From: Anaerolineales bacterium
GTDB lineage: Bacteria > Chloroflexota > Anaerolineae > Anaerolineales > UBA11579
DNA length: 64,000 nucleotides
NCBI GenBank assembly: GCA_026129255.1
Contig: JAHCIJ010000002.1
Location: forward strand, 386,234-450,233
Direction of reading: 5' to 3'
The position numbers and the translations under genes were made by a program. Shown in pieces: positions 1-17,558 of this stretch; the first letter of the stretch is position 1; every line of letters starts with the position of its first letter. The notes beneath the pieces are model-generated. The model was not told the origin of the DNA, did no database searches, and saw only the letters and a list, made by a program, of their open reading frames with translations.

Positions 1-3000
1 CTACCGCCTGGGCTGGAACGAGGATTCCGAGCAGCTGACGCTGATGTATGGCTACCAGTGCACCACGGGCAACCCGTGCAGCACGCCGGATACGCCGTAC
101 ACGGCCAGCGGCTACGCGGGGACGGCTACCAACCGCGTGGCGAGCCGCTGGCGCGTAGACCGCATCTTGGACCGGCATGGCAATTTCATCGATTATGCGT
201 ATACGGAAGAGCAGCCTGACCCGGCTTCGCAGATCCCTGCGTTTGACCGGGCCAGCTACCTGGCCACGATCGCGTTCACTGGTTTCATCGAGGGCGGTTT
301 TGAGGGCACGGTAACCGAGACGCCGGGATACACGGTTGAATTTGTGCTGGGCACCCGCGAGGGGGTGGGCGATGTGGCCCCGTTGAACTTTGGCATTTGG
401 GACCAGTGGGACAGCCAGCTGCTGGAGCGCATCGAGATCCACTATGACAGCCTGCTGGTGCGCAGCTATGACTTTGGCTATGCGGCGGCGGCAGCCCCCA
501 ATGCCAACGGCACGCTGACGCTGACAGAGATCGCAGTGAGCGGCGGCGGCTATACCGAAGGCTCCATCAGTATCCCCAGCACGGATGCCACAACGATCAC
601 GTTTGCGTACGACGATCTGCCCAACCGGGCGCCGAGCGGCCAACAGAATGTGTGGAGCTACCCGCGCCTGGTCTCGATCGCCAATGGGTATGGCGGCCAA
701 CTCAACTACACCTATGAGCATGATGGCCGCGGGGCCAGCTCCTGGTACAACTACCGCGTGCAGCTGGCCGAGGTGGAGAGCGGGCTGGGATTGGCGGCGG
801 TGCAGCGCTATGCCTACGCCACGCCAGCATACACGAACCAGCCCAGCAACGGCCTGGGGGCCTTGTATGGCTACGCCACTGTCACCGAGGCCGCCCGCAA
901 CTTTGCCGACACGGCCGACCTTGTGCAGACTGTGTATAGCTTCGGCACGGCCGGGTTGGATATTGGCCGCCTGCTGACGGCGGATACGAAGGACCCTGGC
1001 GGCCAGGTGCTGCGGCGGGTGCGCAACACTTACACCACAGATAACAGCCAGGCGCCGTTTGAGGGATGGAACTTCCGCTATGTTTTGCAGAGCGAAAACT
1101 TTGAGTGGAACGGCAGCAATTTAGCGCTGATCAACAAAACCGTGTTCCAGCGTGACCCCCTGTATGGCAACCTGCTCACGCGCAGTGAGTATCTGGGGGG
1201 CAACCTGTACCGCAAGCAGATCCTGGAGTACGCCGTCAACCCTGATCCGGCGGTGTACATCCTTGACCGGGTTGCCAGCCAAACGCTGCGGGATGCGAAT
1301 AATACGCTGCTGGGCGAGACGCGCTATGTGTATGACGGCGGCGGCACGCTCAGCCTGGGGGAGCTCAGCCTGAGCCAAACGCTGACGGGAGTGAGCTACC
1401 CACAGAGCGTGGATGCGGCATATGTGTACGATGTGTTTGGCAACCTGGTGGAGACGCGGGCGTATGCGGGCTATGGCAGCGCGGGCTCAGCGCCCGGCGG
1501 CGGATACAGCGCCAGCCAGGTGGCGTATGACAGCGGCTTGCACACCTACCCGGTGAGCGCCACGAACGCGCTCGGCCAGAGCTCTGGCAGCAGCTACCTG
1601 TATTCGCTGGGCGTGCCAGTGAGCGTGACGGACCCCAATGGCTGGACGAGCAGCAGCAGCTACGACGGCCTGGGCCGCGTGGTGAGCACCACTGCGCCGG
1701 GTTTTGGGCAGGCGAATGTGATCTTCACCTATCCCAGCCCGAGCAATGGCCAGGTGGCGGCGCCGTATAGCATGAGCATGCAAATTCTGGATACGCTCGG
1801 CCCGGGCGCGCCGGCCTACCGCACGGTGACGGGTGTGTACGACGGCTTGAGCCGCATCCTGACGCAGAGCGTGGGCGGGCTGACCACGCTGACCGAATAT
1901 GACGAGCGCGGCCAAGTGAGTCGCCAGAGCCTGCCGCACGCCAGCGGCGAGACGCCGCGCTATGTGGAGACCAGCTACGATACGCTGGGGCGGCCCACCA
2001 GCAGCACGCGGCCGGGCGGCATCACCACGCTCTATAGTTATGCCGGGCTGGCTGTGACGACGATCGACCCCAACGGCCACCGTGTGACGCGCGGCCATGA
2101 TGGGCTGGGGCGCATGATCCGGGTGGATGAATATTCCGGCGAGCATCCCTCCACCGAGCTGTATGCCTCCACTGTGTATTCGTACACTGTGCGTGACCAG
2201 CTGGTGCAGGTGAAGGATGCGCAGAACAACCTGACCTCGATCAGCTATGACTGGCTGGGGCGCAAGACGAGTATGAACGACCCGGACATGGGCGTGTGGA
2301 GCTATGCCTATGATGCGCTGGGGAATTTAGTTCAACAAACTGACGCCAGGGGGCAGTCGCTGGGTTTTGAGTACGATGCGCTGGGTCGATTAATCGAAAA
2401 GATCAATGTCAACACCAGTCAGACCATCGCCACGTACACGTATGGCAGCACAGCGGGCACGATCGGCTTCCGCATGGCGATGAGCGACGCCAGCGGCAGC
2501 ACGGCCTGGAGCTACAGCAACTACGGGCGCACGGCCAGCGAAAGCCGCACGATAGACGGGGAGACGTATACCTTCACCACGGTGAGCGATTGGCTGGGGC
2601 GCGTGGCAAGCATTACTTACCCGGATAGCGAGGTGGTGAGCTACAGCTATGATGCGCTGGGGCGCGCCAACGGGGTTGTGGGCAGCCAGGCGGGCACCAT
2701 CGCGCAGCTGGCCTATAACAGTATTAGTCAGATAACGTCAACGAGTCTGGGTAATGGCGTGCAAGTCACAAATACCTACGACAGTGTGACGAGTCGACTA
2801 AGCAACCGCAATGCCACCAACGGTAGCGAAGACCTGATCGACTTCAGTTATGGCTATGACGCGGCTGGCAACATCACCAGTATTACGGATGCCGTGCTGG
2901 GCGAGAGCTTTGCGTATAGCTACGATCACTTGAACCGCCTGCTGGATGCGGACGCATACATTGATGCGGAGCCTGAGACGTATGTGTACCGCCAGCGCTG

Positions 3001-6000
3001 GGAGTATGACGGCATCGGCAACATGCTGCTGGCGGGCTTCTATGTGCCCGAAGAGCCGACCCCGACCGAGACGGGTACCGAGACCAGTACACCTACTGCC
3101 AGCAGTACGCCAACTGTGACGCAAACGCCGACGCCCACCGACACCGAAGAGGAAGGCCATGTACCCGGCGGGCTGCCCGGTGGGCTGCTGGCGGCTGCCG
3201 CCACCGAGGCCGCCAAGGCCACCCGCGGCGCGGTGCTGCGCTCGAAGGTTGCGCGCCTGCTGCTGCTGGACGACGAGCCGACCGAGACGCCCACGGCGAG
3301 CGATACACCGACGGCGAGTAGCACGCCTTCGCCCACGGCCAGCCATACAGCCACTGCCACGGCGGCGCCGGTGCTGCTGGGGGAATGGCATATGAACGAA
3401 ACTGCGGGAAGCAATGTGCCAGACAGCTCTGGCAAGGGGCACAACGGCACGCGCAGCGGCGCTACGTGGACTGTTTACGGCGTCTCCGGCGGGGCGCTGG
3501 AGTTTGACGGGGTGGATGATTACGTCAATGTGAGCAGCACAAACGACCTGAAGCCCACCAATAGCTTCAGTGTGGCGGCGTGGGTAAACCCCAGCGAAGT
3601 GGGCGTGGCCAATCGCATCATCCTCATCAAGGGCGCGTGGGATTATTCGCTGCGCCTGAACAGCGATGGCTACCTTGAGTTCCGCCTGGGTGAGGTGAGC
3701 CCGCACACCGTGAGCGGGCCGATACTGCCTGCCTATACCTGGACCTATGTAGTGGGTGTGTACAACAAAGACGCCAACACCATGCAGCTGTATGTGAACG
3801 GCCAGCTGGTTGCGGCCCAGGCGGTGACAGGCTCCATCACGCATGACGACAACCCGCTGCGCATCGGCGCATACATCACCGGCGGGCAATACTGGAAGGG
3901 CCGCCTGGATGAAGTAAGCCTCTACGACCGCGCCCTGACGCAAGACGAGATTGCGGCGCGCTACACCAGCTTCCCCACGCCCACGCCTACCGTGGGTGCG
4001 CAAACAGCCACGAACACGCCCACCACTACGCTGACGCCAAGTCTGACACCATCCCCCACGCCTTCGCCCAGCCTCACGCCCACGCTGGCGCCGGGCGGTG
4101 TGTGGGGCACGGGGCAGGATGGCAATGTGACGATCCCCACCGCAACCGCCGCGCACAATCTCCACACAACCAACTTTGCGGCGGGGCGTACCTGCAGTGA
4201 TGGCGGGGATGCGGTTGTCTATTCGGTAACCGCGCTGAGCTCAAACAGCGCAACCCTCAGCACATCCCCCAGTGCGGGCTGTTTGAACGTAGGTGACGAA
4301 ATTTTGCTGGCCAACATGCAAGGCGCAAATGGCTCCAGCATAAACACCGGCAATCACGAGTTTCTGCGCGTGTTAGCGGTCAGTGGAAGCACAGTTACTT
4401 TTTATACAAACAAAGAAAACTTCTATGGCTCTGCGGGCGGTAGTGATGCAGGGATTGGCACGGGGGCCACAGACCAGAAAGTGATCTTGCAACGCGTGCC
4501 TAACTATGCGGATCTGACGATCGCTGGCACGCTCACGGGGTCTGAATGGAACGGCACGCGCTTTGGCGTGCTGGCCTTGCGCGTGGCCGGTGAGCTGAGC
4601 GGCGCTGGCAGCCTGCACATGAATGCGCTCGGCTACCGTGGGGGCCGCGGCGGGTGGCTGGACACTCCACGCAATGAGCATTCCGATGCACACCAGGGGG
4701 AGAGTTACCCGCGGGTGGGGGTGTCCTCTGGGTCGCCTAATGGCGGCGGTGGCGGCGGGACAAATTCCAACCGCGGCGCTGGCGGCGGCTATGCGGCTAC
4801 CGGGGTAAGCGGGATAAACACAACCGGCGGGCAGCCCTACGGAGACGCGCAGTTGAGCCATCTGTGGATGGGCAGTGGCGGTGGCGGCGGTGATCACCCT
4901 TGCTCGCCGTGCTCTGGCCCCACCGGTGGAGCCGGCGGCGGGGCGCTATATATTTATGCACACACTGTAGATTATGCTGGCACGCTGAGCGCCAATGGCG
5001 GCGACGGGGCGTGCTACCCGGTCACAAACAACCAGAGTAGTGGTGGAGGCAGTGGCGGCACGATACGCATTGAGGGTGATGCGATCACATTGGATGGCAG
5101 CGTTACGGCCGCCAAGGGTATTGGCTGCGCAACCGGCGATGGCAGTGAGGGGCGTATCGCCGTTTTTTATGGCAGCAGCTTGAGCACCAGCACGGTGAGC
5201 CCGGCAGCGTACACCGAAGCGCAAGCGACACCACAACCCACGGCCACCCCCGGCCCGGCAGGGCCGTGGGGGACAGGTGAGGATGGGAACTTAAGCATAA
5301 CCAACCCGTTCAACATGCATACACAGAACAGTGGTGGCCGTGTTTGTGGTGATGGTGGGGATGCTGTGTCCTATTCGGTCACAGGGCTTACGGAGACCAC
5401 CGGCACCCTAAGCCAAAGCCCTGGGGCTGGCTGCCTGGCAGCGGGGGATGAAGTGCTGCTGATCCATATGCAGGGTACGTCGACTAACTATGCCAATCTG
5501 GGCAACTATGAATTATTGCGGGTATTGATGGTAGTAGGTTCCACCGTTTTCTTTGTGAACGGCAAAACGCTGGACTATGGAAACGATGGCGGCGATGAGA
5601 ACATTGGCGTCAGTGACGGGCAGCAGAAAGTTGTGCTGATGCGTGTACCCAACTACCAGAACGTAGACATCGGCAGCACCCTCACTGGCAGCGCCTGGGA
5701 CGGCACGCGCTTTGGCGTCATGGCCTTCCGCGTAGCGGGTGAGCTGAGCGGCGACGGCAGCATCAGCATGAGTGAGCGCGGCTATCGCGGTGGTAACCCC
5801 GGCTGGCGTGCGGATGGGCAGGGCGAGCTGCGTTACGCCAAACAGGGTGAAAGCTTTGCCGGGCCAGGCATACACTCACACGCCAATAACCAGGGCGGGG
5901 GAGGTGGCAACACCTCAAACGTTGGCGCGGGCGGAGGCTATGCCAGCGGAGGGGGTAATGGGATCAATACGAGTGGCGGAATCACCTATGGTGTGGACAC

Positions 6001-7831
6001 CCTGGATAGGCTGACGGTTGGCTCGGGAGGAGGCGGGTCTGTGTTCTTGTGCACCCCATGTGCAGGCGGGCAGGGAGGGGCCGGTGGTGGGGCGATACTG
6101 ATCTTTGCGCACAGCATTGATCTTGAAGGCAGTATTGCCGCCAATGGCAAGGCTGGGGAGTGTGTGCTGCCAACAAACAACACGCGCTCCGGCGGGGGCT
6201 CGGGTGGTTCCATCCGCTTGGAATCGGAAAGTATTGAGGTAGCTGGAGCGATAAACGCCACGGGTGGAGCTGGATGTGCTGGCTCTGGGCCAGGCGGTAC
6301 GGGACGAATAGCTGTGTATGCAGATTATTTTGCCTATAGCGCTGTTGACCCCGCCCCTTGGGTGCCAGGAGCTACAGCAACTCCGACGCCCACCCCCACG
6401 CCGACCACGCCAACGTTGCAACCGGGCTGGCACGATGGGCTGTATTTTTACGAAGGTGCCCAGCCCCACGCGGTCACGAGTGTTGAGCGCGGGGAAGACG
6501 AAGACACCTATGCGTATGACGCTAATGGAAACATGCTGGAGCGTATCGAAGGCGAAACCACCTGGACGCAAACCTACAACGCTGAAAATCGACTTTCGTC
6601 TATCAGTGATGGCACCGATACATGGACTTTCACTTATGACGGGGACGGCAGACGGGTCAGGCAAGTTGGCCCAACAGGGGAGGTAACACATTATGTAGGG
6701 GGCGGTATTTTTGAAGTACGAGATGCATTGGGGGATACAGAATTTATCAAGTATTACGGTATTGCTGGCCAACGTGTGGCCATGCAAGATGATGGGGGAA
6801 TCAAGTACTTACTAACAGACCACTTAGGCTCAGTGAGTGCCGTATTGGACGATACTGGAGCCATGCTGAGCCAGCAGCGTTACACGCCCTATGGCGAAAC
6901 ACGGTTTGAGATTGGCATAACTGAGACCGACTTTGGGTACACGGGCCAGCGTGTGTTAGCAGGCACTGGATTGATGGATTACAACGCGCGTTTCTATGCG
7001 CCTGGGCTGGGGCGATGGACGCAGCCGGATAGTATTGTGCCGGGGGTAAGCAACCCGCAGAATCTAAACCGTTTTAGTTATGTGCTAAACAACCCAATCA
7101 ACTTTGTTGATCCGAGTGGGCACTGCCCATCAGGCTTACGTTTGCTCGATGGGGAACAGTGCACTTCTAAGCCTAAAGCCACACCGATAAAACTCACACA
7201 GCAAGGAGAGCTTTTTGAAGAGTGGTATGAGAAACTAAATGCTAACAAAAACGGATGGTGGCAAGATGTTCTTGGCTCTGATGGTTCTTTTACTGTTATA
7301 GATGCTATCTCTATGGTGATGATCCAAGAGGCTCAAGGGCAATGGACCAACCCCCATCTTGGCGAAGCGATGATTCGTGCTGCCAATCAATACTGTAAGG
7401 CGCAATATAGTTCACCCTGCACACGGACTGGCTATATAAATTGGTTTGCGCGATATTCGCAAACTGCAATGTCACTAGTTAAGCAAGGGCAGCCAACCCC
7501 GCCGGATCCTCGTATCAATTATTCTGACTGGAATTCAATAGCTCAAGCCTCGGTAATCGACTTGGGGGCAAGTATCTCTAATCATCCGGTTAACTGGGAG
7601 GTGGGTTGCGTGTCTTCGAGTCCCTGTGGATGGGGGAACAATACAGCTGATATGTTTCCTGAGGCAGTGAGAGAACACTTGCATTTGAACCCAACGGCAT
7701 CATTTACATATTGGCCAGCTACTAATAATTACAACCCGAGTGTCAACTCATTTTTTATCCCTTCGGGTTGTATGGTTAGATTCTGGTTGGCAGGTAACAT
7801 CGGCTTTCATTGCCCAATAGGTATCCCATGA
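1..7831 (+). CDS. Giant RHS/YD-repeat polymorphic toxin, 5' end outside window (TcB/TcC-like shell, LamG, two Gly-rich domains, RHS core, unassigned Cys-rich C-terminal tip)
   Basis: Frame is open from base 2, with no stop before the first ATG at 44. Many YD-type repeats (YDGLGR, YDALGN, YDWLGR, YDHLNR). 'RWRVDRILDRHGNFIDYAYTEE' resembles the TcdB mid domain. RHS core 'YTGQRVLAGTGLMDYNARFYAPGLGRWTQPDS..NPINFVDPSGH' lies near 6900-7125. Confidence 0.9.
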   Translation, partial: YRLGWNEDSEQLTLMYGYQCTTGNPCSTPDTPYTASGYAGTATNRVASRWRVDRILDRHGNFIDYAYTEEQPDPASQIPAFDRASYLATIAFTGFIEGGFEGTVTETPGYTVEFVLGTREGVGDVAPLNFGIWDQWDSQLLERIEIHYDSLLVRSYDFGYAAAAAPNANGTLTLTEIAVSGGGYTEGSISIPSTDATTITFAYDDLPNRAPSGQQNVWSYPRLVSIANGYGGQLNYTYEHDGRGASSWYNYRVQLAEVESGLGLAAVQRYAYATPAYTNQPSNGLGALYGYATVTEAARNFADTADLVQTVYSFGTAGLDIGRLLTADTKDPGGQVLRRVRNTYTTDNSQAPFEGWNFRYVLQSENFEWNGSNLALINKTVFQRDPLYGNLLTRSEYLGGNLYRKQILEYAVNPDPAVYILDRVASQTLRDANNTLLGETRYVYDGGGTLSLGELSLSQTLTGVSYPQSVDAAYVYDVFGNLVETRAYAGYGSAGSAPGGGYSASQVAYDSGLHTYPVSATNALGQSSGSSYLYSLGVPVSVTDPNGWTSSSSYDGLGRVVSTTAPGFGQANVIFTYPSPSNGQVAAPYSMSMQILDTLGPGAPAYRTVTGVYDGLSRILTQSVGGLTTLTEYDERGQVSRQSLPHASGETPRYVETSYDTLGRPTSSTRPGGITTLYSYAGLAVTTIDPNGHRVTRGHDGLGRMIRVDEYSGEHPSTELYASTVYSYTVRDQLVQVKDAQNNLTSISYDWLGRKTSMNDPDMGVWSYAYDALGNLVQQTDARGQSLGFEYDALGRLIEKINVNTSQTIATYTYGSTAGTIGFRMAMSDASGSTAWSYSNYGRTASESRTIDGETYTFTTVSDWLGRVASITYPDSEVVSYSYDALGRANGVVGSQAGTIAQLAYNSISQITSTSLGNGVQVTNTYDSVTSRLSNRNATNGSEDLIDFSYGYDAAGNITSITDAVLGESFAYSYDHLNRLLDADAYIDAEPETYVYRQRWEYDGIGNMLLAGFYVPEEPTPTETGTETSTPTASSTPTVTQTPTPTDTEEEGHVPGGLPGGLLAAAATEAAKATRGAVLRSKVARLLLLDDEPTETPTASDTPTASSTPSPTASHTATATAAPVLLGEWHMNETAGSNVPDSSGKGHNGTRSGATWTVYGVSGGALEFDGVDDYVNVSSTNDLKPTNSFSVAAWVNPSEVGVANRIILIKGAWDYSLRLNSDGYLEFRLGEVSPHTVSGPILPAYTWTYVVGVYNKDANTMQLYVNGQLVAAQAVTGSITHDDNPLRIGAYITGGQYWKGRLDEVSLYDRALTQDEIAARYTSFPTPTPTVGAQTATNTPTTTLTPSLTPSPTPSPSLTPTLAPGGVWGTGQDGNVTIPTATAAHNLHTTNFAAGRTCSDGGDAVVYSVTALSSNSATLSTSPSAGCLNVGDEILLANMQGANGSSINTGNHEFLRVLAVSGSTVTFYTNKENFYGSAGGSDAGIGTGATDQKVILQRVPNYADLTIAGTLTGSEWNGTRFGVLALRVAGELSGAGSLHMNALGYRGGRGGWLDTPRNEHSDAHQGESYPRVGVSSGSPNGGGGGGTNSNRGAGGGYAATGVSGINTTGGQPYGDAQLSHLWMGSGGGGGDHPCSPCSGPTGGAGGGALYIYAHTVDYAGTLSANGGDGACYPVTNNQSSGGGSGGTIRIEGDAITLDGSVTAAKGIGCATGDGSEGRIAVFYGSSLSTSTVSPAAYTEAQATPQPTATPGPAGPWGTGEDGNLSITNPFNMHTQNSGGRVCGDGGDAVSYSVTGLTETTGTLSQSPGAGCLAAGDEVLLIHMQGTSTNYANLGNYELLRVLMVVGSTVFFVNGKTLDYGNDGGDENIGVSDGQQKVVLMRVPNYQNVDIGSTLTGSAWDGTRFGVMAFRVAGELSGDGSISMSERGYRGGNPGWRADGQGELRYAKQGESFAGPGIHSHANNQGGGGGNTSNVGAGGGYASGGGNGINTSGGITYGVDTLDRLTVGSGGGGSVFLCTPCAGGQGGAGGGAILIFAHSIDLEGSIAANGKAGECVLPTNNTRSGGGSGGSIRLESESIEVAGAINATGGAGCAGSGPGGTGRIAVYADYFAYSAVDPAPWVPGATATPTPTPTPTTPTLQPGWHDGLYFYEGAQPHAVTSVERGEDEDTYAYDANGNMLERIEGETTWTQTYNAENRLSSISDGTDTWTFTYDGDGRRVRQVGPTGEVTHYVGGGIFEVRDALGDTEFIKYYGIAGQRVAMQDDGGIKYLLTDHLGSVSAVLDDTGAMLSQQRYTPYGETRFEIGITETDFGYTGQRVLAGTGLMDYNARFYAPGLGRWTQPDSIVPGVSNPQNLNRFSYVLNNPINFVDPSGHCPSGLRLLDGEQCTSKPKATPIKLTQQGELFEEWYEKLNANKNGWWQDVLGSDGSFTVIDAISMVMIQEAQGQWTNPHLGEAMIRAANQYCKAQYSSPCTRTGYINWFARYSQTAMSLVKQGQPTPPDPRINYSDWNSIAQASVIDLGASISNHPVNWEVGCVSSSPCGWGNNTADMFPEAVREHLHLNPTASFTYWPATNNYNPSVNSFFIPSGCMVRFWLAGNIGFHCPIGIP
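3372..3965 (+). other. LamG / concanavalin-A-like lectin domain embedded in the RHS protein
   Basis: 'LLGEWHMNETAGSNVPDSSGKGHNGT...ALEFDGVDDYVNV...FSVAAWVNP...YVNGQLVA...PLRIGA...WKGRLDEVSLYDRALTQDEI' is the typical LamG/laminin-G_3 signature. It is flanked by Pro/Thr-rich linkers. Confidence 0.8.
4094..5218 (+). repeat. Intragenic tandem duplication, copy 1 of a ~370-aa Gly-rich domain
   Basis: Starts 'GVWGTGQDGNVTI', contains 'RFGVLALRVAGELSGAGSLHMNALGYRGG' and GGGxGG runs, and ends 'GRIAVFYGSS'. It is colinear with copy 2. Confidence 0.85.
5261..6357 (+). repeat. Intragenic tandem duplication, copy 2 of the Gly-rich domain
   Basis: Starts 'GPWGTGEDGNLSI', contains 'RFGVMAFRVAGELSGDGSISMSERGYRGG', and ends 'GRIAVYADYF'. 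The order of conserved blocks matches copy 1. Confidence 0.85.
6415..7125 (+). repeat. RHS-core recombination module, copy A (inside the main gene)
   Basis: 'LQPGWHDGLYFYEGAQPHAVTSVERGEDEDTYAYDANGNM ... NFVDPSGH'. It is colinear at DNA level with 9086-9790 and partly with 11811-11979. Confidence 0.9.
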
Positions 7832-8994
7832 GATACAGCTTATCCATGCTTTTGTCTTTGGTTTTGTTGACGGGATGTTCTCATAATATAGATTCTCCGC
7901 CTATGCTCGAAGTCGACGCGACAATAATAAGCCCCGCGGGGCAGCTTGAACCTTCAAGTACTCCGGCGCAGTTGCTAGCCGGGATTGAAGAAAGATGCTT
8001 GTGGCTCTCAGATCTTCCCATCCCTAGGCTATATGGTTCGCTTGTATATGATCGCTACGAATTATTTAGTGACGAATATGGTATTAGCATCCGAGACCTG
8101 AGAACCGACCGAGACTTCTTTGTTAAGGATTCGCGGTGGGCTTATGTATCTCCTAATCGAGAACTCATTGCATTTGAAATGATCGGTGACACCACTCTTG
8201 TCACTGACAAATTTGCTCACGTATTACAGAGTATTCCTCAAAGTAGGTATGCCGGCATACCAGTTAATGGCTGGATAAACAATGAAACTTTGGGTTTGGC
8301 GATTTATCCCAATAACTCTTTGAGAATATGGAACTGGCACGATCGTGAGTATCAAGAACTCTCGCGCGGAGAATTTCGTGACTTTGCTTCCATCGATCCG
8401 CAATGGACATTCGCCGTAAATTCAGACCTAAGCTTATTTGCCTATTCTAGTCAGGAGAACGGAACAACTTCTCTCGTAGTTTGGGATGATGTGCTAAAGA
8501 CTGAGATCGCGCGAATTCTGTATCCATCAAGAACTCTCCCCCCGATATGGTCTCCTGACGGTGGGCGCCTGCTCTTTTCTGCTGAGCTTAACGACTCGAC
8601 ACCTGACTTTCAATCAGGGGATCTGTTTTTTGTTACCAAGGATGGAGAAATAAACCGTTTAACTCAATTTGAGGACTCCTTGGCTTTTTTACAGTATGCT
8701 CCCGCGTGGTCTCCCAGCGGAGAAGCAGTTGCTTTTCTCTTCCGAAGTTCTCTTGATCAGCTTGAAGATGTAGGAGTCGTAGAAGTTGCGAAACAGAATG
8801 TTGTTCGCTATTGCACGGGGAGTTTTGGCCAATTCCTTGGCCCACCGCCTATCTGGTCGCCTGATGGTCAGTACATAATTATCCATCTGCAGAGCAACGG
8901 TTTTAGGCCATTTCTTGTTAACGTTGATTCTGGTGAAACGTGGCCTTTGCTAGAGGAGGGCGCTACCGTGCACGGATGGGTCGCAGGTGAGTAG
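7828..8994 (+). CDS. Exported PD40/TolB-like beta-propeller lipoprotein, candidate immunity protein for the main RHS tip
   Basis: The ATG at 7828 overlaps the RHS stop (ATGA). Lipobox 'LLSLVLLTGCSH'. Repeated 'WSPDGGRLLFSA', 'WSPSGEAVAFLF', 'WSPDGQYIIIHL'. The DNA is visibly AT-richer. Confidence 0.75.
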   Translation: MRYSLSMLLSLVLLTGCSHNIDSPPMLEVDATIISPAGQLEPSSTPAQLLAGIEERCLWLSDLPIPRLYGSLVYDRYELFSDEYGISIRDLRTDRDFFVKDSRWAYVSPNRELIAFEMIGDTTLVTDKFAHVLQSIPQSRYAGIPVNGWINNETLGLAIYPNNSLRIWNWHDREYQELSRGEFRDFASIDPQWTFAVNSDLSLFAYSSQENGTTSLVVWDDVLKTEIARILYPSRTLPPIWSPDGGRLLFSAELNDSTPDFQSGDLFFVTKDGEINRLTQFEDSLAFLQYAPAWSPSGEAVAFLFRSSLDQLEDVGVVEVAKQNVVRYCTGSFGQFLGPPPIWSPDGQYIIIHLQSNGFRPFLVNVDSGETWPLLEEGATVHGWVAGE

Positions 8995-10504
8995 GCTGGC
9001 TCCTGGGAGTGGACATGTCGATGGAAATGTACTCTGGTCATCAGGTGATATCGAGTTGTGCCTAGGTTCTGGGTGGTGGCTTTGCTTGCAGCCGGGCTGG
9101 CATGATGGGTTGTACTATTATGAAAATGTACAGCCGCACGCCGTGACACTGGTTGAACGCGGCGAGGATGAGGAGACATACGAGTACGATGCCAATGGCA
9201 ACATGATCGGCTGGACTGAAGGTGAAGAGGAGTGGGAGCTAGTTTACAACGCAGAAAATCGACTTTCGTCACTCAGTGACGGCACGGATACATGGAGCTT
9301 CACTTATGACGGTGACGGCAGACGGGTCAGACAAGTTGGCCCTATGGGGGAGGTAACACATTATGTAGGAGGTGCGTACGAAGTGCGCGACGCGGCCGGC
9401 GATGCCGAAGTACTCAAATACTACGGCATTGCCGGCCAGCGCGTGGCCATGGGGGATAGTGAGGGAATTAAGTACTTACTAACAGACCACTTAGGCTCGG
9501 TGAGTGCTGTATTGGACGATACTGGAGCCATGCTGAGCCAGCAGCGCTATACGCCTTATGGTGTGCCACGCTTTGAAGTAGGTATTACCGAGACAGACTT
9601 TGGTTATACCGGACAGCGAATGCTTACAGGCACTGGCTTGATGGATTACAACGCGCGCTTCTATGCGCCGGGTCTAGGGCGGTGGACACAGCCCGACAGC
9701 ATTGTGCCAAGTATTGGAGACCCACAGAATCTAAACCGATTTACTTACGTACTCAATAGTCCTCTTAACTTCATTGACCCGAGTGGGCGCTGTGCGTCAG
9801 GAATCATTCTGGACAGTCAGTGTTTGGCGTTTCATGCTCCAGGCTTGCGTTATAGGCCAGAAAATCAAGGTGCGTGCGCTGGTCAGATTTGTCCGCCGGC
9901 GCGAACAGATACTATGTCTCCGCCTCTGGATATTCCGTTAGTAGTAGGTGGAAATGATTGGCTAACAAAGCGTACGAATACAGATCCGGGTCATATTGGA
10001 GTGGATTATTCTGGAACACCCGGTATACCTGTTCGTTCATTAGGGAATGGCATTGTTGCAACATCTAGCGGATGCACATATTATATGGAGTACAACTGCG
10101 ACTACTATCACATTGAACTAGAAAAGAGAATAACAACACAGTCAAATCAAGGTTATGGTCATGTGGTTGTAATTGAGTATCCATATGGATCATTAAATCC
10201 CACTGTCATAACTGCCTTAGATATTCAGCCTGGCTATTCGTTATATGCGCTATCTGCTCATTTGTTGGACGCCCCGGTTGTGAACTCAGGTGACCCGGTC
10301 GAAGTGGGCGAAGTTATAGGACTTTTAGGCTCTAGTGGGTATTCTTCCGGACCACATTTGCACTTTGAACTTCGACAAGGCCCGACTGGTTATGTTAAGT
10401 CACTGGATTTTTACGGCTATTTATGGTTTGGCCTTCCACCAATTAATCCTCACTTGCTAGAACCGCTATACGGCATTAATCTAGGAAAGGGGATTGGGCA
10501 GTGA
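8987..10504 (+). CDS. Orphan RHS cassette: RHS core fused to an M23 (LytM-type) metallopeptidase tip
   Basis: RHS core 'LQPGWHDGLYYYENVQPHAVT...NFIDPSGRCASG', then M23 motifs 'GHIGVDYSG' (HxxxD) and 'GPHLHFELR' (HxH). The only in-frame start is GTG 8987, which overlaps the upstream stop. Confidence 0.8.
   Translation: MSRLAPGSGHVDGNVLWSSGDIELCLGSGWWLCLQPGWHDGLYYYENVQPHAVTLVERGEDEETYEYDANGNMIGWTEGEEEWELVYNAENRLSSLSDGTDTWSFTYDGDGRRVRQVGPMGEVTHYVGGAYEVRDAAGDAEVLKYYGIAGQRVAMGDSEGIKYLLTDHLGSVSAVLDDTGAMLSQQRYTPYGVPRFEVGITETDFGYTGQRMLTGTGLMDYNARFYAPGLGRWTQPDSIVPSIGDPQNLNRFTYVLNSPLNFIDPSGRCASGIILDSQCLAFHAPGLRYRPENQGACAGQICPPARTDTMSPPLDIPLVVGGNDWLTKRTNTDPGHIGVDYSGTPGIPVRSLGNGIVATSSGCTYYMEYNCDYYHIELEKRITTQSNQGYGHVVVIEYPYGSLNPTVITALDIQPGYSLYALSAHLLDAPVVNSGDPVEVGEVIGLLGSSGYSSGPHLHFELRQGPTGYVKSLDFYGYLWFGLPPINPHLLEPLYGINLGKGIGQ
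9086..9790 (+). repeat. RHS-core recombination module, copy B
   Basis: DNA-level colinearity with 6415-7125. The same conserved blocks appear in the same order, through the DPSG[HR]C[PA]SG junction. Confidence 0.9.
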
Positions 10505-11736
10505 TGAACCTGTTTCGGGTTTTTGTCGTCGCGGCAATTCTTGTAGGGTGTTCAAATTTTGGAGAAACGGAACTCCCGGTTTCCTCAATTGAGACTCCTA
10601 TGATTACAGTCCCGACCAAGACCGTATCAGCCTACCCCGGATTTGCTTATAGCACTAAAGTTCCCTTTGAGGCAAAAGGCAGTTTAATTGCTGTACTCCA
10701 TGATGGAGTGACGGTCTTGGATATTGCTGGGGGACTTATTAAAAGTTTTCCGTTACCTGAAAATTGTTCTCCATTTGTTGTTCCGCAATCTACTGAGTTT
10801 GTTTGTAAAGTGGGTGAAGACTTTATTATGTATGACGCTCTCTCTGGAGTAGAAAAACCCTTGGACGACCTTGAGGCTGACTGGATTAGCGCGACTAAAA
10901 ATGGAAAATTCCTTTTTTATGGCTATCAAACAGAGAAACTGGTAGTGGGGGTTATTGATACTAGCAGTGGCGAACACGTTAGTCAGGGACAGATTGATAT
11001 TTCTGAAGTCTATTCTGGCCCATGGAGTAGGCTTCCATACGGATCATTGACGTTGTCGCCCGACGGCAAATACTTTGCATTCTTAGCACACAGTAATAGT
11101 TTAAATATTGCAGATGTTGTCATCGTTAGCGCCATCGACTATAGTTTGATCGCTGTAGAGAATATGCCCGCTATTCAGGATTCGGGAGCGGGCCTGGCTT
11201 GGTCGTATGATGGGCGATACCTCCTTTATGGTTCTCAAGAATCAGCTTTTGCCCCGGAGATTTGGGCTGATGAACAATATCTTTTTGAAGTTGCAGACTC
11301 CCGAGCAGCATTTGTGCGTGAACTTCAGTTGGATCTTGCCGTGGACGAATTCTGGAGTAATCGCTGGTGGATACCCGGAGATTTGATCCCCCCAGGAAAC
11401 AACTTTTTAGCTGACGTTTGGTCGCCTGATAATGAACACCTTGTGCTTTCCTTTTCACGCTCTGATGAGAGCAATGGAGTTCAATATATACTGCAGGGTT
11501 TCTGTATAACCAAGATTATTGGTGAAAGAAACCTTTGCAAAGATATTGTTTCACAGACGGCAATTGATACATACTATTCTATTGACTCTCTGGGCTGGTC
11601 ACCCCGGGGGGATTTTGTTTATTTCGTCGCGAGGGGTTCAAGGGACACCGATGTTTTTATTTATAGCATTGAAAGAGACGAGTTTTTTCTAATACTTTCC
11701 GAATCGGGCATTGTAAGTGTTGAATGGATACCATAA
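10501..11736 (+). CDS. Exported PD40-like beta-propeller lipoprotein, candidate immunity protein for the M23 tip
   Basis: The start (GTG 10501 / ATG 10504) overlaps the upstream stop TGA. Lipobox 'AAILVGCSN'. Repeats 'LSPDGKYFAFLA', 'WSYDGRYLLYGS', 'WSPDNEHLVLSF', 'WSPRGDFVYFVA'. Confidence 0.75.
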   Translation: MMNLFRVFVVAAILVGCSNFGETELPVSSIETPMITVPTKTVSAYPGFAYSTKVPFEAKGSLIAVLHDGVTVLDIAGGLIKSFPLPENCSPFVVPQSTEFVCKVGEDFIMYDALSGVEKPLDDLEADWISATKNGKFLFYGYQTEKLVVGVIDTSSGEHVSQGQIDISEVYSGPWSRLPYGSLTLSPDGKYFAFLAHSNSLNIADVVIVSAIDYSLIAVENMPAIQDSGAGLAWSYDGRYLLYGSQESAFAPEIWADEQYLFEVADSRAAFVRELQLDLAVDEFWSNRWWIPGDLIPPGNNFLADVWSPDNEHLVLSFSRSDESNGVQYILQGFCITKIIGERNLCKDIVSQTAIDTYYSIDSLGWSPRGDFVYFVARGSRDTDVFIYSIERDEFFLILSESGIVSVEWIP

Positions 11737-11810
11737 TGTGCAAACATGACTTGCATGGTCGGTAGGTTTACTTTCTGAGATATTAAATAAATCATGCATT
11801 ATGCTCGGAG

Positions 11811-11979
11811 GCAAACCTATAACGCAGAAAATCGACTTTCGTCACTCAGTGACGGCACGGATACATGGAGCTTCACTTATGACGGGGACGGCAGACGGGT
11901 CAGACAAGTTGGCCCAACAGGGGAAGTAACACATTATGTAGGGGGTGCGTACGAAGTGCGCGACGCGGCCGGCGATGCC
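11811..11979 (+). pseudogene. Truncated RHS-core remnant (third cassette, both ends missing)
   Basis: 'YNAENRLSSLSDGTDTWSFTYDGDGRRVRQVGPTGEVTHYVGGAYEVRDAAGDA' is nearly identical to 9245-9408. Homology stops abruptly at 11979. Confidence 0.85.
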
Positions 11980-12022
11980 TGGAGGCCACCCCCTTGACAC
12001 CTGACCCTGAATCTGCACAAAC

Positions 12023-12917: not shown

Positions 12918-12990
12918 GCGCACGCGTGTATGCGGGCGTTAGGCGCCACACGCGCGGCCAGCAGCCACGGCTGTCTATGTGGAGCGCCCG

Positions 12991-15537
12991 ATGAGCCGCG
13001 TACGCGTGTATGCCGGGGCCAGTGCGCCAAGCCACGAGCTCAGCCTGAGTGACGGCGTGCTGACCTGGGGGCTGCGCTTGGAGGGTGGCGCCGACGGCAT
13101 CAAGGAGAGTGTGCTCACGCCTTCGGGCTTGCGGCTCAACTGGGTGAGCGGCTTCGGCGCCTGGGAGCCAGGCCTGGCGCAGATCGAGCAGCGCGATTGG
13201 AGCGGCGGCCGCGGTGCGGCGCGCTTTAGCACGCAGGCCGCCCGCCGCTACTACGACAGCCAAGACGCCTGGACGCTGACGCCGGGCCGCGTGCATGCGG
13301 CGCCGCAGTGGCGCTATGCCAGCGGCCTGCGTGCCGCTGCCCAACGCCTGCCGGGCGATGTGCGCTGGCAAGCGCTCATCGGGGCGCAACGCAGCCTGGC
13401 CGCCGCGTTCACCGTTGCTGCAGGCGGCTTGGCCGCCAAGCAGGCGCGTGTGTGGTTGCGCCGCGTCGGTTCGCCTGGCGAGCTGACCGCGCAACTGCAT
13501 GCCGATGCGGCCGGGCAGCCGGGCGCGGCGCTGCCCAACTCGGCTAGCGCCATCACCCAGGCGGATGTGACCGATGTGGTCAGCCAGCTGCGCAGCTTCG
13601 ATGTCTCTGGCTACAGCACACCGCTCAGCGCGGGTGCGTATCATCTCTCGCTGCGCGGCGCGGCCGCCGACAATGCCAGCAATCACTGGGAGATCGGTGT
13701 GCAACGGCGTGCCAGCGGCGGGCACAGCTCACCGGATGGCGGCGCCTGGAGCGCCACCGAGTTCTGCGCCTACTACCGCGTGCAGGATGCCGAGCGTGCC
13801 CGCACCTTCGTGTTTTTTGAGCTGCACGGCGCGCTGTATGCTGCCGACCAGTGTGCGGATGGCACACCCTCGCATGTCTATCTCAACGGCGAACGCGGCG
13901 TGGCGACCGGCGGCGCGGCCAGCGCGCTGACCGACACCGACAAGAACTGGCCGGTAGACCACTGGGCCGGGGCGTGGGTGCGTATCCTGGCGGGCAAGGG
14001 CGCGGGGCAGGCGCGGCGTATCACCGCCAACACGGTCAGCACGCTGGCGGTAGCCAGTTGGGACCAGGCACCGGATGCCACTTCGGAGTACGCCATCTAC
14101 GCCACCCCGCACTGGCAAGACATCTCGCCCGGCACCGGCGATCTGATCGATGGCATCGTGAGCGATGTGACCGTGCTCAATGGCCAAGCATTGTTGGCGC
14201 AAGGCAGCAGCGTGCCGGTCCTGCGCATGCGCTTTAACCCGGCTGCTTCACCGCCCACGCATGAGTTCGACGATGACGGCAGCAACACGGCCGACCTGCT
14301 GCACGCTTTCCAGCACAGTGAGCTGGGGCCGCAAGTGTGGCGCGGCTTTGTAGCCAGCGCGGAAGTGTCGCGCGCCGCGCCCAGCGCCTGGCTCACGCCG
14401 CTCAGTTTTGGCTCGGCGATCCAGCTGGGTGCGGATGGGCAGCCGCTGCACAAGTTGCTGGACTACAACAGCCAGCTATGGGCGGTGAAGGCCGACAGTC
14501 TGTGGATCGTGGAGCGCAGCGAGCATGTGGCGCGCCACCTGGGCCTGGAGGCGCAGCCCCAGCAGCCAACCCCGCCGCTATGTGTGGCGCAAGACAAGCT
14601 ATGGCTGGGCTGGGGCAGTAGCCTGCTGGTGACCGGCGCCAGCGGCCTGGCGGATCTTGGCCCCGGCCGCGGCGAGGGCTTGCCCGCCGGCCGCGGCGGC
14701 CGCGTGGCTGCGCTGGCACAGCTCGGTGTTGGCCGCATGGCGGCCGCCATCGATGCAGGCGAGGGGCACTCCAGTGTGCTGGTGTGGGACGGCGAAGCCT
14801 GGCATGAACTGATGCGTGCGCCGCAGGCTGGCGAGCGCGTGCGCGGCCTGCACTGGCAGGCCTGCCCCGGTACGGCGCCGCGCCTGTGGGTGGCGCTGGG
14901 CGGCGAGCTGGCCTACCTGGCCCTGCCCGCCAGCGGGGACAACCCGCTGGGCGATGGCAGCCTGCGCTACCAGCACGAGGGCGTGCTGGTGGGCAGCACC
15001 ATCGATATGGAAGCTACGCTGCTGCCCAAGTTTCTGACGCAACTCAGCCTGGTCAGCCGCAACCTGGGCGAGGGCGCCCAGGTGGAGCTGGACTACCAGG
15101 TGGATGGCGAGATCGGCGGGCCGCGCTGGCGCCAGGCGGGCGGCTTCTACTCCTCGCCGGTGGACACGCTGACCTTGGACACCGGCGAGCTGTTTGCCTT
15201 CCGCCCGCGGCTGCGCCTGCTCAGCCAGCGCGCCGATGCGCCCGCCACGGTTGAGGCGACCCTGCTGGAAGGCTTCGCGCGCACGCCGCAGAAGTACCAG
15301 TGGGAGCTGAGTGTGCGCCTGGCCGACCTGCAACTGGATGGCGGCGGCGGGCTGGAGCCTGCGCCGGAGGCCTTCCTGGCCTGGCTGCGCAATGCGGCCC
15401 GCAGCGCCGCCCGCATCCACCTGCGTTCCATCTGGGGCGCGCTGGATGACACCTACGTCATCGTTGAGGCGCCTAGCTTGCAGCGTGAGCTGGCCAGCGA
15501 GGGCGGGGTGGCGGTGGTGAAAGTGCGGGAAGGATGA
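12991..15537 (+). CDS. Large hypothetical protein (848 aa), possible phage tail hub/nozzle-like protein with propeller-like repeats
   Basis: ATG 12991 follows GGAG. Repeated blade-like segments 'LWAVKADSLWIV', 'LWLGWGSSLLV', 'VLVWDGEAWHEL', 'RLWVALGGELAYL'. No T7 gp12 'GGxSQQ' motif was seen. Confidence 0.55.
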   Translation: MSRVRVYAGASAPSHELSLSDGVLTWGLRLEGGADGIKESVLTPSGLRLNWVSGFGAWEPGLAQIEQRDWSGGRGAARFSTQAARRYYDSQDAWTLTPGRVHAAPQWRYASGLRAAAQRLPGDVRWQALIGAQRSLAAAFTVAAGGLAAKQARVWLRRVGSPGELTAQLHADAAGQPGAALPNSASAITQADVTDVVSQLRSFDVSGYSTPLSAGAYHLSLRGAAADNASNHWEIGVQRRASGGHSSPDGGAWSATEFCAYYRVQDAERARTFVFFELHGALYAADQCADGTPSHVYLNGERGVATGGAASALTDTDKNWPVDHWAGAWVRILAGKGAGQARRITANTVSTLAVASWDQAPDATSEYAIYATPHWQDISPGTGDLIDGIVSDVTVLNGQALLAQGSSVPVLRMRFNPAASPPTHEFDDDGSNTADLLHAFQHSELGPQVWRGFVASAEVSRAAPSAWLTPLSFGSAIQLGADGQPLHKLLDYNSQLWAVKADSLWIVERSEHVARHLGLEAQPQQPTPPLCVAQDKLWLGWGSSLLVTGASGLADLGPGRGEGLPAGRGGRVAALAQLGVGRMAAAIDAGEGHSSVLVWDGEAWHELMRAPQAGERVRGLHWQACPGTAPRLWVALGGELAYLALPASGDNPLGDGSLRYQHEGVLVGSTIDMEATLLPKFLTQLSLVSRNLGEGAQVELDYQVDGEIGGPRWRQAGGFYSSPVDTLTLDTGELFAFRPRLRLLSQRADAPATVEATLLEGFARTPQKYQWELSVRLADLQLDGGGGLEPAPEAFLAWLRNAARSAARIHLRSIWGALDDTYVIVEAPSLQRELASEGGVAVVKVREG

Positions 15538-15641
15538 CTATTAATCGACTAATCAAATCAATCAATGTCAATGGCCGACCAGTCGACTGGGTCGACTAGT
15601 CGACTGGTCACTTAGTTGAACAAGAATGGAGGTCTTTTTTT

Positions 15642-16067
15642 ATGTACAGCTTCATCTACAACGCAGGCAAGCTGGCCTTGCTTAAGGGCGAAGTACAGCC
15701 ACTGGCGGATACCTTGCGTGCCGCCCTGGTGACGGAAGAGTACGTGGCGGATAAGGACGCGCACGAAGTTTTGGCCGACATCAGCCATGAGGTGACCGGC
15801 GGTGGCTACACCTCCGGCGGCAAAGCGCTGGCGAGCGTCTCGCTGGCCCAGGACAATGCCAATGACCGTGCCGCCATCCTGGCCGATAACGTAGTCTGGC
15901 CGGTGGGCGCCTTCACCGCCCGCGCCGCCGTGCTCTACAAGGACACGGGCAACCCCGCCACCAGCCCGCTGCTGGCCTACATGAACTTTGGCGGCGACCA
16001 CACCGTGAGCGGTGAAGACTTCAACCTGGAGTGGAGTCCGGAGGGGGTGTTGTATTTGGGGGAATAG
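15642..16067 (+). CDS. Hypothetical small virion-type protein (141 aa)
   Basis: Strong SD 'GGAGG' before ATG 15642. The 'NAGKLALLKG...GGGYTSGGKAL...TARAAVLYKDTG..TSPLLAYMNFG' pattern recalls small conserved phage structural proteins. This is from memory only. Confidence 0.6.
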   Translation: MYSFIYNAGKLALLKGEVQPLADTLRAALVTEEYVADKDAHEVLADISHEVTGGGYTSGGKALASVSLAQDNANDRAAILADNVVWPVGAFTARAAVLYKDTGNPATSPLLAYMNFGGDHTVSGEDFNLEWSPEGVLYLGE

Positions 16068-16181
16068 CAATAAGTGAGCAGTGACTAGTGAACGGTGACT
16101 GGGGCATGCGACAGTGGTCTAGGACGACTTCCTGCTCACTCCTCACTAGTCACTCATCACTACTTTATCAAGGAGGAATTA

Positions 16182-17558
16182 ATGTCAACTTGGATCGATA
16201 GCTACTTAGAGCACAATGCCGATCTCGTCGGGCGGGTAGCGGCGCGCAGCGCCTACGCCACGCACTTCGAGCTCGGCGCGGGTGTGCGGCGGGCGCTGAT
16301 CACTTCGGCGCCGCAATACTTCCGCAGCGCGCAGGGCTGGCAGGCTTATGACCTCAGCCTGCGGCAAGACGCCGCCGCCCGCTGGGGCGCACCGGGTGCG
16401 CCGGTGCGCTTGGCGCCCGACGGTACGCTGAGCTTCAGCGAGGGCAGCGCTTACCAACAGCGCACGCGTAGTGTGGGCGTGTTGGTAGACGGCGTGTACA
16501 CACCGCTGGCACAGCTGCCCGCTGGCCGCGCCGTAGGCTCGCGCTTGCGCCGCGAGACCGGCGTGTTTTGCCATGAGCTCGTGCTCACTGAGCACGGCGC
16601 CAAGGAGGAGCTGCGTTTGAGCAGCTTCCCTGAGGGGTTAGATACGGCAGAGGGCTACCTGGTGTATGAGACGCTGCGGCGCGGCAACGATCAGGGTCTG
16701 CTGTTTTCGCCGGGCAGCGCCGTGGATGCAGATGGGCGCGTCTTCCCGGTACAGCACTTCGCCTTTGGCGAAGTACTGTACACCGGCTTGGCCGTGGAGG
16801 ATGTGGCGCGTGCCACATTCCCGCTGGTCATCGATCCCTCGGTGTTCTTCGGCTCCGTGGGCGATGCGTACATCTCCAGCTTTGCGGGCAACTATGCCAC
16901 GTCACGCGCAACCTCCACCTCGTTTGAGTTTGGCACGGCGGATATGTATGTTGGCCAGGCTTACGAATCCGCCATCCCGCGCTATTACACCTTTCGCTCA
17001 GTGATGAAGTTTTCACTGGCTTCCCTGAATCCGCTGGCGGTCATCTTTGCGGCGGCTCTGCATATCGCCTGCATGGTGGATGCCTCTTCCGTGGCCGATT
17101 TTGATGTGCAGATCCTCAAACAGGATTGGTCGGCCCAGGACCCATTGAGCAATGGCAACCGTGAGGCGGTATACGACGCCTGCCTGGCGGGGAGCACAGA
17201 TGCGGTGTGGCGCAACACCGCCGGGCTGGCGACGGGCAGCTTGTTGAGCAGCGCCCCGCTGGACGTCAGCTGGTTGGCGCCTGGCGGCCTGGCGTACTAC
17301 AGTTTGCGCAGCAGCCGTGATGCGGCGGGCATTCCGCCGGCGAGCAACGGCGACGAGTACGTGCGCCTGGCCGCTGGAGCACACAGCACGCCGGCCCTGC
17401 GTCCCGTGCTGATGGTGGATTACTTCGCCGTGCCCAGCGCAACGGGCAAGCTGGTACAGCCCAGCCCGCGGGTGCGCATTCAGGATACGCGCATCAAGCT
17501 GCGCGCCCGCCGCCGCAAAACATTGCTGGCGGCCGAGCGCGCCACAGGCGGGCGATGA
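16182..17558 (+). CDS. Hypothetical protein, possible tail fibre/spike-like protein
   Basis: 'AAGGAGGAATTA' precedes ATG 16182. 'GAKEELRLSSFPEGL...DADGRVFPVQHF...TFPLVIDPS' resembles the N-terminal module of DNRLRE/wall-associated-type surface proteins. Confidence 0.55.
   Translation: MSTWIDSYLEHNADLVGRVAARSAYATHFELGAGVRRALITSAPQYFRSAQGWQAYDLSLRQDAAARWGAPGAPVRLAPDGTLSFSEGSAYQQRTRSVGVLVDGVYTPLAQLPAGRAVGSRLRRETGVFCHELVLTEHGAKEELRLSSFPEGLDTAEGYLVYETLRRGNDQGLLFSPGSAVDADGRVFPVQHFAFGEVLYTGLAVEDVARATFPLVIDPSVFFGSVGDAYISSFAGNYATSRATSTSFEFGTADMYVGQAYESAIPRYYTFRSVMKFSLASLNPLAVIFAAALHIACMVDASSVADFDVQILKQDWSAQDPLSNGNREAVYDACLAGSTDAVWRNTAGLATGSLLSSAPLDVSWLAPGGLAYYSLRSSRDAAGIPPASNGDEYVRLAAGAHSTPALRPVLMVDYFAVPSATGKLVQPSPRVRIQDTRIKLRARRRKTLLAAERATGGR

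Follow-up and report, generated by a model that had tools for sequence, protein, structure and literature searches.

We analysed a stretch of 64,000 nucleotides, referred to below as the window, from an Anaerolineales bacterium of the Chloroflexota (GenBank assembly GCA_026129255.1, contig JAHCIJ010000002.1, positions 386,234 to 450,233 of the forward strand). It contains an array of RHS toxin cassettes in which two unrelated toxin tips are each followed by a gene for a predicted propeller lipoprotein, and these two proteins, lipoproteins A and B, are the subject of this study. All features of the array lie on the forward strand. The first is the 3' part, longer than 2,600 codons, of a large RHS/YD-repeat toxin gene (positions 1-7831), delineated from the open reading frame (ORF) list and its translation. 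Its frame is already open at the first bases of the window, the N-terminus being encoded upstream, and its stop codon occupies 7829-7831. The product matches RHS_repeat (130 bits, Pfam), Laminin_G_3 and TIGR03696, the model of the RHS-associated core (77.8 bits). This terminal core runs from LQPGWHDG to NFVDPSGH (6416-7123) and is a recombination substrate that recurs at 9086 and 11818. The gene ends in tip 1 (7124-7831), a C-terminal toxin domain of 235 residues with 8 cysteines that lies outside known families. Gene A (7828-8994), which encodes the 388 residues of lipoprotein A, starts with an ATG overlapping the TGA of the RHS gene in the sequence ATGA (7828-7831). The orphan RHS module that comes next (8987-10504) is made of a second core (9086-9790, ending in NFIDPSGR, 72 bits with TIGR03696) and of tip 2, an M23 domain (9791-10501). 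It has no convincing start codon of its own, and a GTG at 8987 overlaps the end of gene A. The TGA of this ORF overlaps the ATG of gene B (10504-11736) in the sequence TGATG (10502-10506). Lipoprotein B has 410 residues, or 411 if it is started from the GTG at 10501. The low-GC array ends at a third, truncated copy of the core (NRLSSLSDGTDTWSFTYDGDGRRVRQVGP..., 11818-11979), which shares 96% identity with 9245-9406.

The orphan core shares 83% protein identity with the main core, and the direct repeats at 6416, 9086 and 11818 are 75-96% identical. Both complete cores end in a DPxG-type motif, after which the unrelated tips of about 235 residues begin. The components of an RHS polymorphic toxin cassette are all present, namely YD/RHS repeats, an RHS-associated core terminated by PxxxxDPxG and a variable tip, and the orphan tip-immunity module is bounded by repeated core fragments. 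The GC content falls to 43-52% across about 6500-12000, a region that covers the tips and the lipoprotein genes, compared with 60-73% in the flanks. The locus has the classic RHS anatomy: a single orphan tip/immunity module is present, and further recombination has left its scar. The ORF list contains no other candidate immunity gene in either module. Between the YD repeats and the terminal core, the main RHS protein also carries a large insertion (3380-6415), composed of a Laminin_G_3 (concanavalin-like) domain and of two tandem glycine-rich repeats of about 380 residues each (4097-5260 and 5261-6415, 54% identical), all spaced by proline/threonine linkers. This insertion looks like a surface-binding or display module.

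Tip 2 scores 52.4 bits against the Pfam family Peptidase_M23 (cut-off 28.7 bits, E = 6e-14) and has intact zinc motifs, HxxxD (HIGVD) and HxH (HLH). It is predicted to be an M23 peptidoglycan endopeptidase, a kind of enzyme for which action outside the membrane is certain. Tip 1 has no match in Pfam, and neither sequence nor profile comparison with the PDB gave one. A word-indexed search of 5.8 billion proteins returned no match to tip 1, and missed the parent RHS protein too. Its relatives were reached only indirectly, upstream of genes of the A family. Homologues were found in partial ORFs located directly upstream of A-family lipoproteins on two other contigs, L084 and L094; in both the homology extends along the whole tip (BLASTP E = 2e-11 with the L084 ORF). 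Over the three tip1-like sequences (window, L084 2-871 and L094 2-751), 48 columns are invariant, and the conserved motifs include WY, WW, FT..D, E, EA..R, Q.CK, NW.A.YS and IP.GC. In L084 and L094 a Pro/Thr-rich linker precedes the domain, and the partial ORFs show no RHS core. Tip 1 represents an undescribed family of cysteine-rich toxin domains of about 230 residues, carried on an RHS core or behind a Pro/Thr linker. The export of its partner and its cysteine content suggest that tip 1 acts on the envelope as well.

Both lipoproteins start with a basic residue, a hydrophobic stretch and a lipobox: the N-terminus of A reads MRYSLSMLLSLVLL-TGC17 (L-T-G-C17) and that of B reads MNLFRVFVVAAIL-VGC16 (L-V-G-C16). 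Each of these signal peptides ends in the lipobox pattern [LVI][ASTVI][GAS]C, from which lipidation is predicted. A lipobox-like motif occurs at the same position in every full-length relative of either family with an intact N-terminus. The NCBI gene models (P0001, 363 residues, for A; P0121, 378 residues, for B) begin at an internal methionine and drop the signal peptides, the stretches concerned being 7828-7902 for A and 10501-10599 for B. Since the position of the lipobox is kept in all those full-length relatives, the longer starts are the right ones. The choice of start in the NCBI models is probably a systematic annotation error affecting genes that overlap an upstream stop codon, and automatic annotation removes the lipoprotein signals of such genes. 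The cysteine pairs conserved in B (88/101 and 334/345) and in A (57/329) are consistent with an extracytoplasmic location.

The signal peptides are followed by a linker, of about 35 residues and low model confidence in A and of about 40 residues in B, and then by a β-propeller. The repeats of A (YVSPNRELIAF, IWSPDGGRLLF, AWSPSGEAVAF and IWSPDGQYIII) and those of B (TLSPDGKYFAF, AWSYDGRYLLY, VWSPDNEHLVL and GWSPRGDFVYF) resemble PD40 blades. Against Pfam PD40 (PF07676, gathering cut-off 20.9 bits), A passes with 26.5 bits (E = 6e-6) and B stays under the cut-off with 13.2 bits (E = 0.088), B being PD40-like at the profile and fold level only. AlphaFold2 models both proteins as all-β, with about 27 strands, at a predicted local distance difference test (pLDDT) score of 77.6 for A and 78.5 for B and a predicted template modelling (pTM) score of 0.79 for each. 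The top Foldseek matches of both models in the PDB are TolB and other propellers of 6-7 blades. Compared with the PDB at the profile level, the A family retrieves the PD40 propellers of S9 peptidases (6e-15) and TolB (5e-8), and the B family retrieves the same two, S9 peptidase (3e-4) and TolB (9e-4), both weakly. We thus predict from the models that A and B are TolB/PD40-like propellers of 6-7 blades. This bears out the sequence-only reading, made before any database search, which had described two exported propeller lipoproteins in the immunity position of unrelated tips; the overlaps, sizes, lipoboxes and blade repeats on which it relied were all found where it had placed them.

That reading had also grouped A and B in one scaffold family, which holds at the superfamily level and fails for close kinship. 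BLASTP aligns A with B at E = 4e-5, through the repeats alone. A comparison of the family profiles with hhalign gives a probability of 98.9% (E = 2e-17), collinear over 270 columns, a score that is inflated by the repeats. By sequence, A and B are two distinct families related at the superfamily or profile level only. TolB orthology was considered for both and rejected: TIGR02800, the equivalog model of the Tol-Pal system protein TolB, whose family belongs to the Tol-Pal operon, gives 31.8 bits for A and 15.3 bits for B against a cut-off of 343, with matches confined to the propeller part (model positions 201-257 and 238-260 of 418). The reading frames adjoining A and B contain no tol-pal genes and are RHS modules.

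The resemblance to TolB raises the possibility of a decoy, in which the propeller would mimic a surface receptor, as TolB is for colicins, and trap the incoming toxin. The best structural and profile matches are indeed to TolB, whose propeller binds colicin peptides, and related scaffolds serve two unrelated toxins here. However, an M23 enzyme acting on exposed peptidoglycan needs no protein receptor, neither A nor B is a TolB orthologue, tol-pal neighbours are missing from the adjoining frames, and the toxin-family-specific pairing described below would be explained just as well by direct recognition of the catalytic domain. We regard decoy immunity as distinctly unlikely, and favour surface immunity proteins that bind the tips themselves.

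The question of whether the pairing of tip and lipoprotein recurs elsewhere was addressed separately for each family. Among 1.84 billion representative proteins scanned exhaustively with HMMER, only about ten are B-like, with 22-27% identity to B. Two new contigs, L097 and L098, came from a metagenome scan that started from a five-sequence subset of the B-family alignment. Each of them carries an RHS core with a tip2-like M23 tip, immediately followed by a B-family lipoprotein, and in L098 a further RHS core fragment lies after the lipoprotein gene. The M23 tips are 39% (L097, E = 6e-20) and 34% (L098, E = 3e-25) identical to tip 2, and the lipoproteins only about 22-25% identical to B. Two more B-family genes stand in RHS surroundings. 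Directly downstream of P0125 (L080/L081) come an orphan RHS core, a tip containing a HEMWH motif and a small lipoprotein; this tip has no Pfam match and is possibly a metallopeptidase, judging from its motif. P0122 (L001) has an RHS core fragment downstream, in an RHS orphan array. On L079 (212-1309), P0124 is preceded by a second lipoprotein, with Reg_prop (two-component regulator propeller) repeats; propeller lipoproteins can thus stand in tandem, and no toxin is visible on this 3-kb contig. For P0126, P0124 and the A-family member P0045 the contig is too short or the DNA absent. In total, 5 of the 7 informative contexts of the B family are in RHS arrays, and the upstream toxin is a tip2-like M23 domain in all 3 readable cases (window, L097 and L098).

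The A family gave a similar picture. Its full-length, collinear members (P0087, P0117, P0045, P0011, P0013 and P0059) share a C-terminal VGW motif. P0013, which was seen on 20 contigs, and P0059 are both encoded directly downstream of a partial ORF with a tip1-like domain, and P0011 has an orphan RHS core directly downstream. Toxin linkage was found in 4 of 5 informative contexts, three of them with a tip1-like domain directly upstream. The sequence-only reading had stated that it would be refuted by homologues located mostly away from toxin genes; the contexts of both families come out in its favour. In the diverged paired loci the tips are 27-39% identical and the lipoproteins 22-29%. The downstream gene co-varies with the toxin domain both for A (window, L084 and L094) and for B (window, L097 and L098). 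Because an A-family gene accompanies the tip1-like domains of L084 and L094 even though no RHS core is seen there, this domain and its lipoprotein seem, on sequence comparison, to move together independently of the delivery scaffold.

More than 1,000 PD40 proteins match A, most of them through its three canonical blades alone, and some family members occur in housekeeping contexts. Both facts would be expected if common Anaerolineae PD40 lipoproteins had been captured in the island by accident, with no functional tie to the toxins. Such a chance association is hard to reconcile with the presence of the same rare families beside the same toxin types in diverged loci, with the overlapping stop and start codons, and with lipoprotein genes that are low in GC like the tips and lie between RHS-core repeats. 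We consider it highly improbable.

The same data bear on a role that had been suggested alongside immunity, that of a shared accessory factor involved in tip folding, maturation, shell loading or release, or of a lectin-like targeting subunit. Genes A and B are translationally coupled to the tips, and their products are far larger than typical immunity proteins. Propellers are moreover reported as ligand-binding and targeting modules of other toxin systems (PMC13274773; bioRxiv 10.1101/2025.04.24.650519), the propeller lectins of Streptomyces umbrella toxin particles offering a point of comparison. Against this, a lipobox would hold the protein on the membrane of the producer, a place where neither a chaperone of the cytoplasm nor a secreted targeting subunit would fit. 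What each family tracks is its own toxin domain and not the delivery scaffold, as seen in L084 and L094, orphan modules retain the lipoprotein gene although the toxin start codon is lacking, and neither module offers an alternative candidate for immunity. An accessory or targeting function thus appears unlikely, and the notion of a shared role in tip maturation was not upheld.

Taken together, these data make it likely that A and B are surface immunity proteins in a two-module RHS toxin/immunity array, each lipoprotein protecting against its cognate tip by binding it. For A, the candidate partner of tip 1, this rests on the ATGA overlap, the PD40 match, the family alignment, the AlphaFold2 model with its TolB match and the pairing; for B, the candidate partner of the M23 tip, on the TGATG overlap, the family alignment, the AlphaFold2 model with its propeller matches and the gene order kept in L097 and L098. 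Extracytoplasmic immunity, as first proposed from the sequence, is also the best reading in view of the recurrent pairing of toxin and lipoprotein. From the gene layout, the lipoboxes, the modelled propeller fold, the intact M23 site, the cassette repeats and the pairing at other loci, we infer the following route of export, binding, inhibition and protection. The RHS protein would be exported via Sec, as the related full-length RHS proteins, which have a Sec signal peptide at their start, lead us to expect. Its C-terminal tip would be freed after the DPxG motif of the core and act in neighbouring cells on the outer side of the cytoplasmic membrane, tip 2 as an M23 peptidoglycan endopeptidase and tip 1 as a new cysteine-rich domain that may likewise act on the envelope. 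With toxins that are exported and tips that act outside the membrane on this reading, self-protection would have to be extracytoplasmic. The producer and its kin would be protected by the cognate lipoprotein, tethered on the outer face of the membrane beside the wall. The propeller would bind the tip, its active site probably being blocked by a loop or by the top face, a proposal modelled on the action of Tsi1 and PliI that is also predicted for X-Tfi(XAC2610). Each toxin domain would travel with its own propeller family as a cassette, shifted between loci by recombination at the RHS core.

Several observations weigh against surface immunity. The orphan M23 module, lacking a clear start codon, may be silent. 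At least one member of each family has no link to a toxin: in the B family, P0123 (L078) lies between an epimerase gene and a glycosyltransferase gene, and in the A family P0087 (L099) follows cysS. The M23 tips of two loci described below, L013 and L045, pair with other, non-orthologous lipoproteins. The comparison contigs are, in addition, mostly short metagenome fragments, and several contexts are cut.

To place the array among related cassettes, we used an RHS-core scan of 185,579 species genomes, which gave 76 loci, about 40 of them in Chloroflexota; 143 core ends (about 135 with complete tips) were taken together with the first downstream ORFs. M23 tips are rare, 3 among about 135, and all three are followed by a lipoprotein of 410-457 residues. 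Besides tip 2 of the window, followed by the 410-residue propeller lipoprotein B, these are the tip of an orphan module in L013 (Longilinea arvoryzae KOME-1, 76.9 bits), followed by a 430-residue lipoprotein with PD40-like blades and weak propeller matches, and that of L045 (50.2 bits), followed by a 457-residue lipoprotein with no assigned fold. A single immunity family for M23 tips was rejected, the L013 partner reaching 35% in hhalign with B, at the repeat level only, and the L045 partner giving nothing. Propellers also follow tips of other types. An Amidase_6 tip (L038) is followed by a PD40 protein (34 bits) with an N-terminal hydrophobic segment, and a tip of no known type (L009) by a membrane-anchored propeller of the PQQ/BamB type (99 bits). 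The theme of a tip followed by a PD40-like or PQQ-type propeller is present in further Chloroflexota RHS cassettes besides that of the window.

Polymorphic-toxin immunity proteins are usually treated as small cytoplasmic binders, and exported immunity had accordingly been taken as exceptional at this locus. The location outside the cytoplasm stands, but the premise was too strong: exported immunity to cell-wall effectors is well known, as from Tsi1 and X-Tfi, discussed below, and about 60% of the related Chloroflexota downstream ORFs have a hydrophobic N-terminus. By a rough heuristic combining hydrophobicity and lipobox, an N-terminal hydrophobic segment was counted in 27 of 45 non-redundant downstream ORFs from Chloroflexota, and a lipobox-like motif in 10.

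Other cassettes of the survey are worth recording. In both L012 (4574-6790) and L067 (10001-11697), a tip with an HExxH motif (HEFGHQFD and HELGHVFD, respectively) and no Pfam match precedes a lipoprotein of about 310-330 residues; the two lipoproteins have a CxLPC motif in common by eye, and neither matches Pfam. To judge by their motifs, the two loci may represent a further conserved combination, in which a metallopeptidase tip is paired with an exported immunity protein. In two Anaerolineales loci, L005 (10001-12665) and L006 (10001-12630), the gene after the tip encodes an exported low-complexity protein of about 400 residues that matches nothing in Pfam and could represent a further repeat scaffold. 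Of the tips themselves, that of L005 shows a lipase-like GHSMG motif together with a weak Mbeg1-like Pfam match, and that of L006 has no Pfam match. The 3-kb contig L014, labelled as a metagenome-assembled genome of Neptuniibacter sp., a gammaproteobacterium, contains two RHS cores sharing 55-56% identity with the Anaerolineales core, a level that many Chloroflexota matches also show, and probably reflects a binning error or a recent transfer. Downstream of the array in the window, the neighbouring high-GC genes between 12 and 17.5 kb have no Pfam match, so that no secretion or accessory genes were identified nearby. Two ORFs of about 70% GC in this area, 12979-15537 (852 residues) and 16095-17558 (487 residues), have no Pfam match at E <= 1e-5; many ORFs overlap on both strands across 12979-17558, which makes the true genes uncertain.

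The pairs found in the survey invite a broader proposal, which we put forward tentatively and as somewhat less probable than not: complete, surface-anchored propellers of the PD40/PQQ type could form a general, evolvable anti-toxin scaffold in Chloroflexota, repeatedly drawn from the many housekeeping surface propellers of this phylum and neutralising unrelated toxins (M23, Amidase_6 and tip1) that Sec-exported RHS proteins would direct at the envelope. If so, tip1 would be the founding member of a family of extracellular antibacterial toxins not known before. Large repeat scaffolds at the cell surface seem to confer immunity in Chloroflexota, in line with RHS toxins that are apparently exported via Sec and act on the wall from outside. 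Two distantly related propeller families, each specific for one toxin, would form a natural system in which a single fold has been retuned against unrelated enzymes. The locus thereby offers both a new toxin domain, tip1, with an extracytoplasmic target predicted by its partner, and a candidate proteinaceous inhibitor of M23 endopeptidases.

The array is closest in organization to the RHS/YD-repeat loci with orphan arrays of the Sec-dependent class (PMC3482391). They have in common with it the RHS repeats, the DPxG core with a variable tip and a tightly linked downstream gene, as well as the orphan core-tip-immunity module and the core remnant produced by recombination, in cassettes of lower GC than their surroundings. 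The difference lies in the products, here exported propeller lipoproteins of 388-410 residues instead of small cytoplasmic proteins, and in one tip being an M23 hydrolase. The survey of polymorphic toxins in which these loci are described states explicitly that β-propellers were not found among immunity proteins, and includes one lipoprotein immunity family (Zhang et al. 2012, PMC3482391). Full-text searches gave no paper connecting PD40 propellers with immunity in such systems, and apart from that survey none that deals with RHS loci of Chloroflexota. In fold, the nearest known proteins are TolB and the PD40 propellers of S9 peptidases, which give the best profile and fold matches and share the WSPDG-type blade motif; A and B differ from them in their predicted lipid anchor, and have neither the N-terminal domain of TolB nor a peptidase domain.

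In role, the closest counterparts are three exported, propeller-like inhibitors of peptidoglycan hydrolases (PMC3391265, PMC10933484): Tsi1, the immunity protein to the type VI secretion system amidase Tse1; X-Tfi(XAC2610), a lipoprotein providing immunity to a lysozyme-like effector of a type IV secretion system; and PliI, a periplasmic lysozyme inhibitor. Inhibition by Tsi1 and PliI works through a loop inserted in the active site, a mode also predicted for X-Tfi(XAC2610) (PMC3391265, PMC10933484). As predicted for A and B, all three are exported or lipid-anchored, all-β, propeller-like and contain disulfides, and Tsi1 and X-Tfi(XAC2610) are likewise immunity proteins paired with a peptidoglycan-hydrolase effector. 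In contrast, the propeller of Tsi1 is small and partial, with three sheets, whereas A and B are predicted to be complete PD40-type propellers of 6-7 blades, and the delivery system (Sec-exported RHS proteins here), the host phylum and the M23 target differ as well. Neither Tsi1 nor XAC2610 appeared among the PDB profile matches or the top 50 Foldseek matches of A and B. The likeness to Tsi1 and X-Tfi is one of role, location and general architecture only. The array of the window would thus extend the exported inhibitors of cell-wall effectors rather than reveal a new kind of system, and it brings with it an uncharacterised toxin domain.

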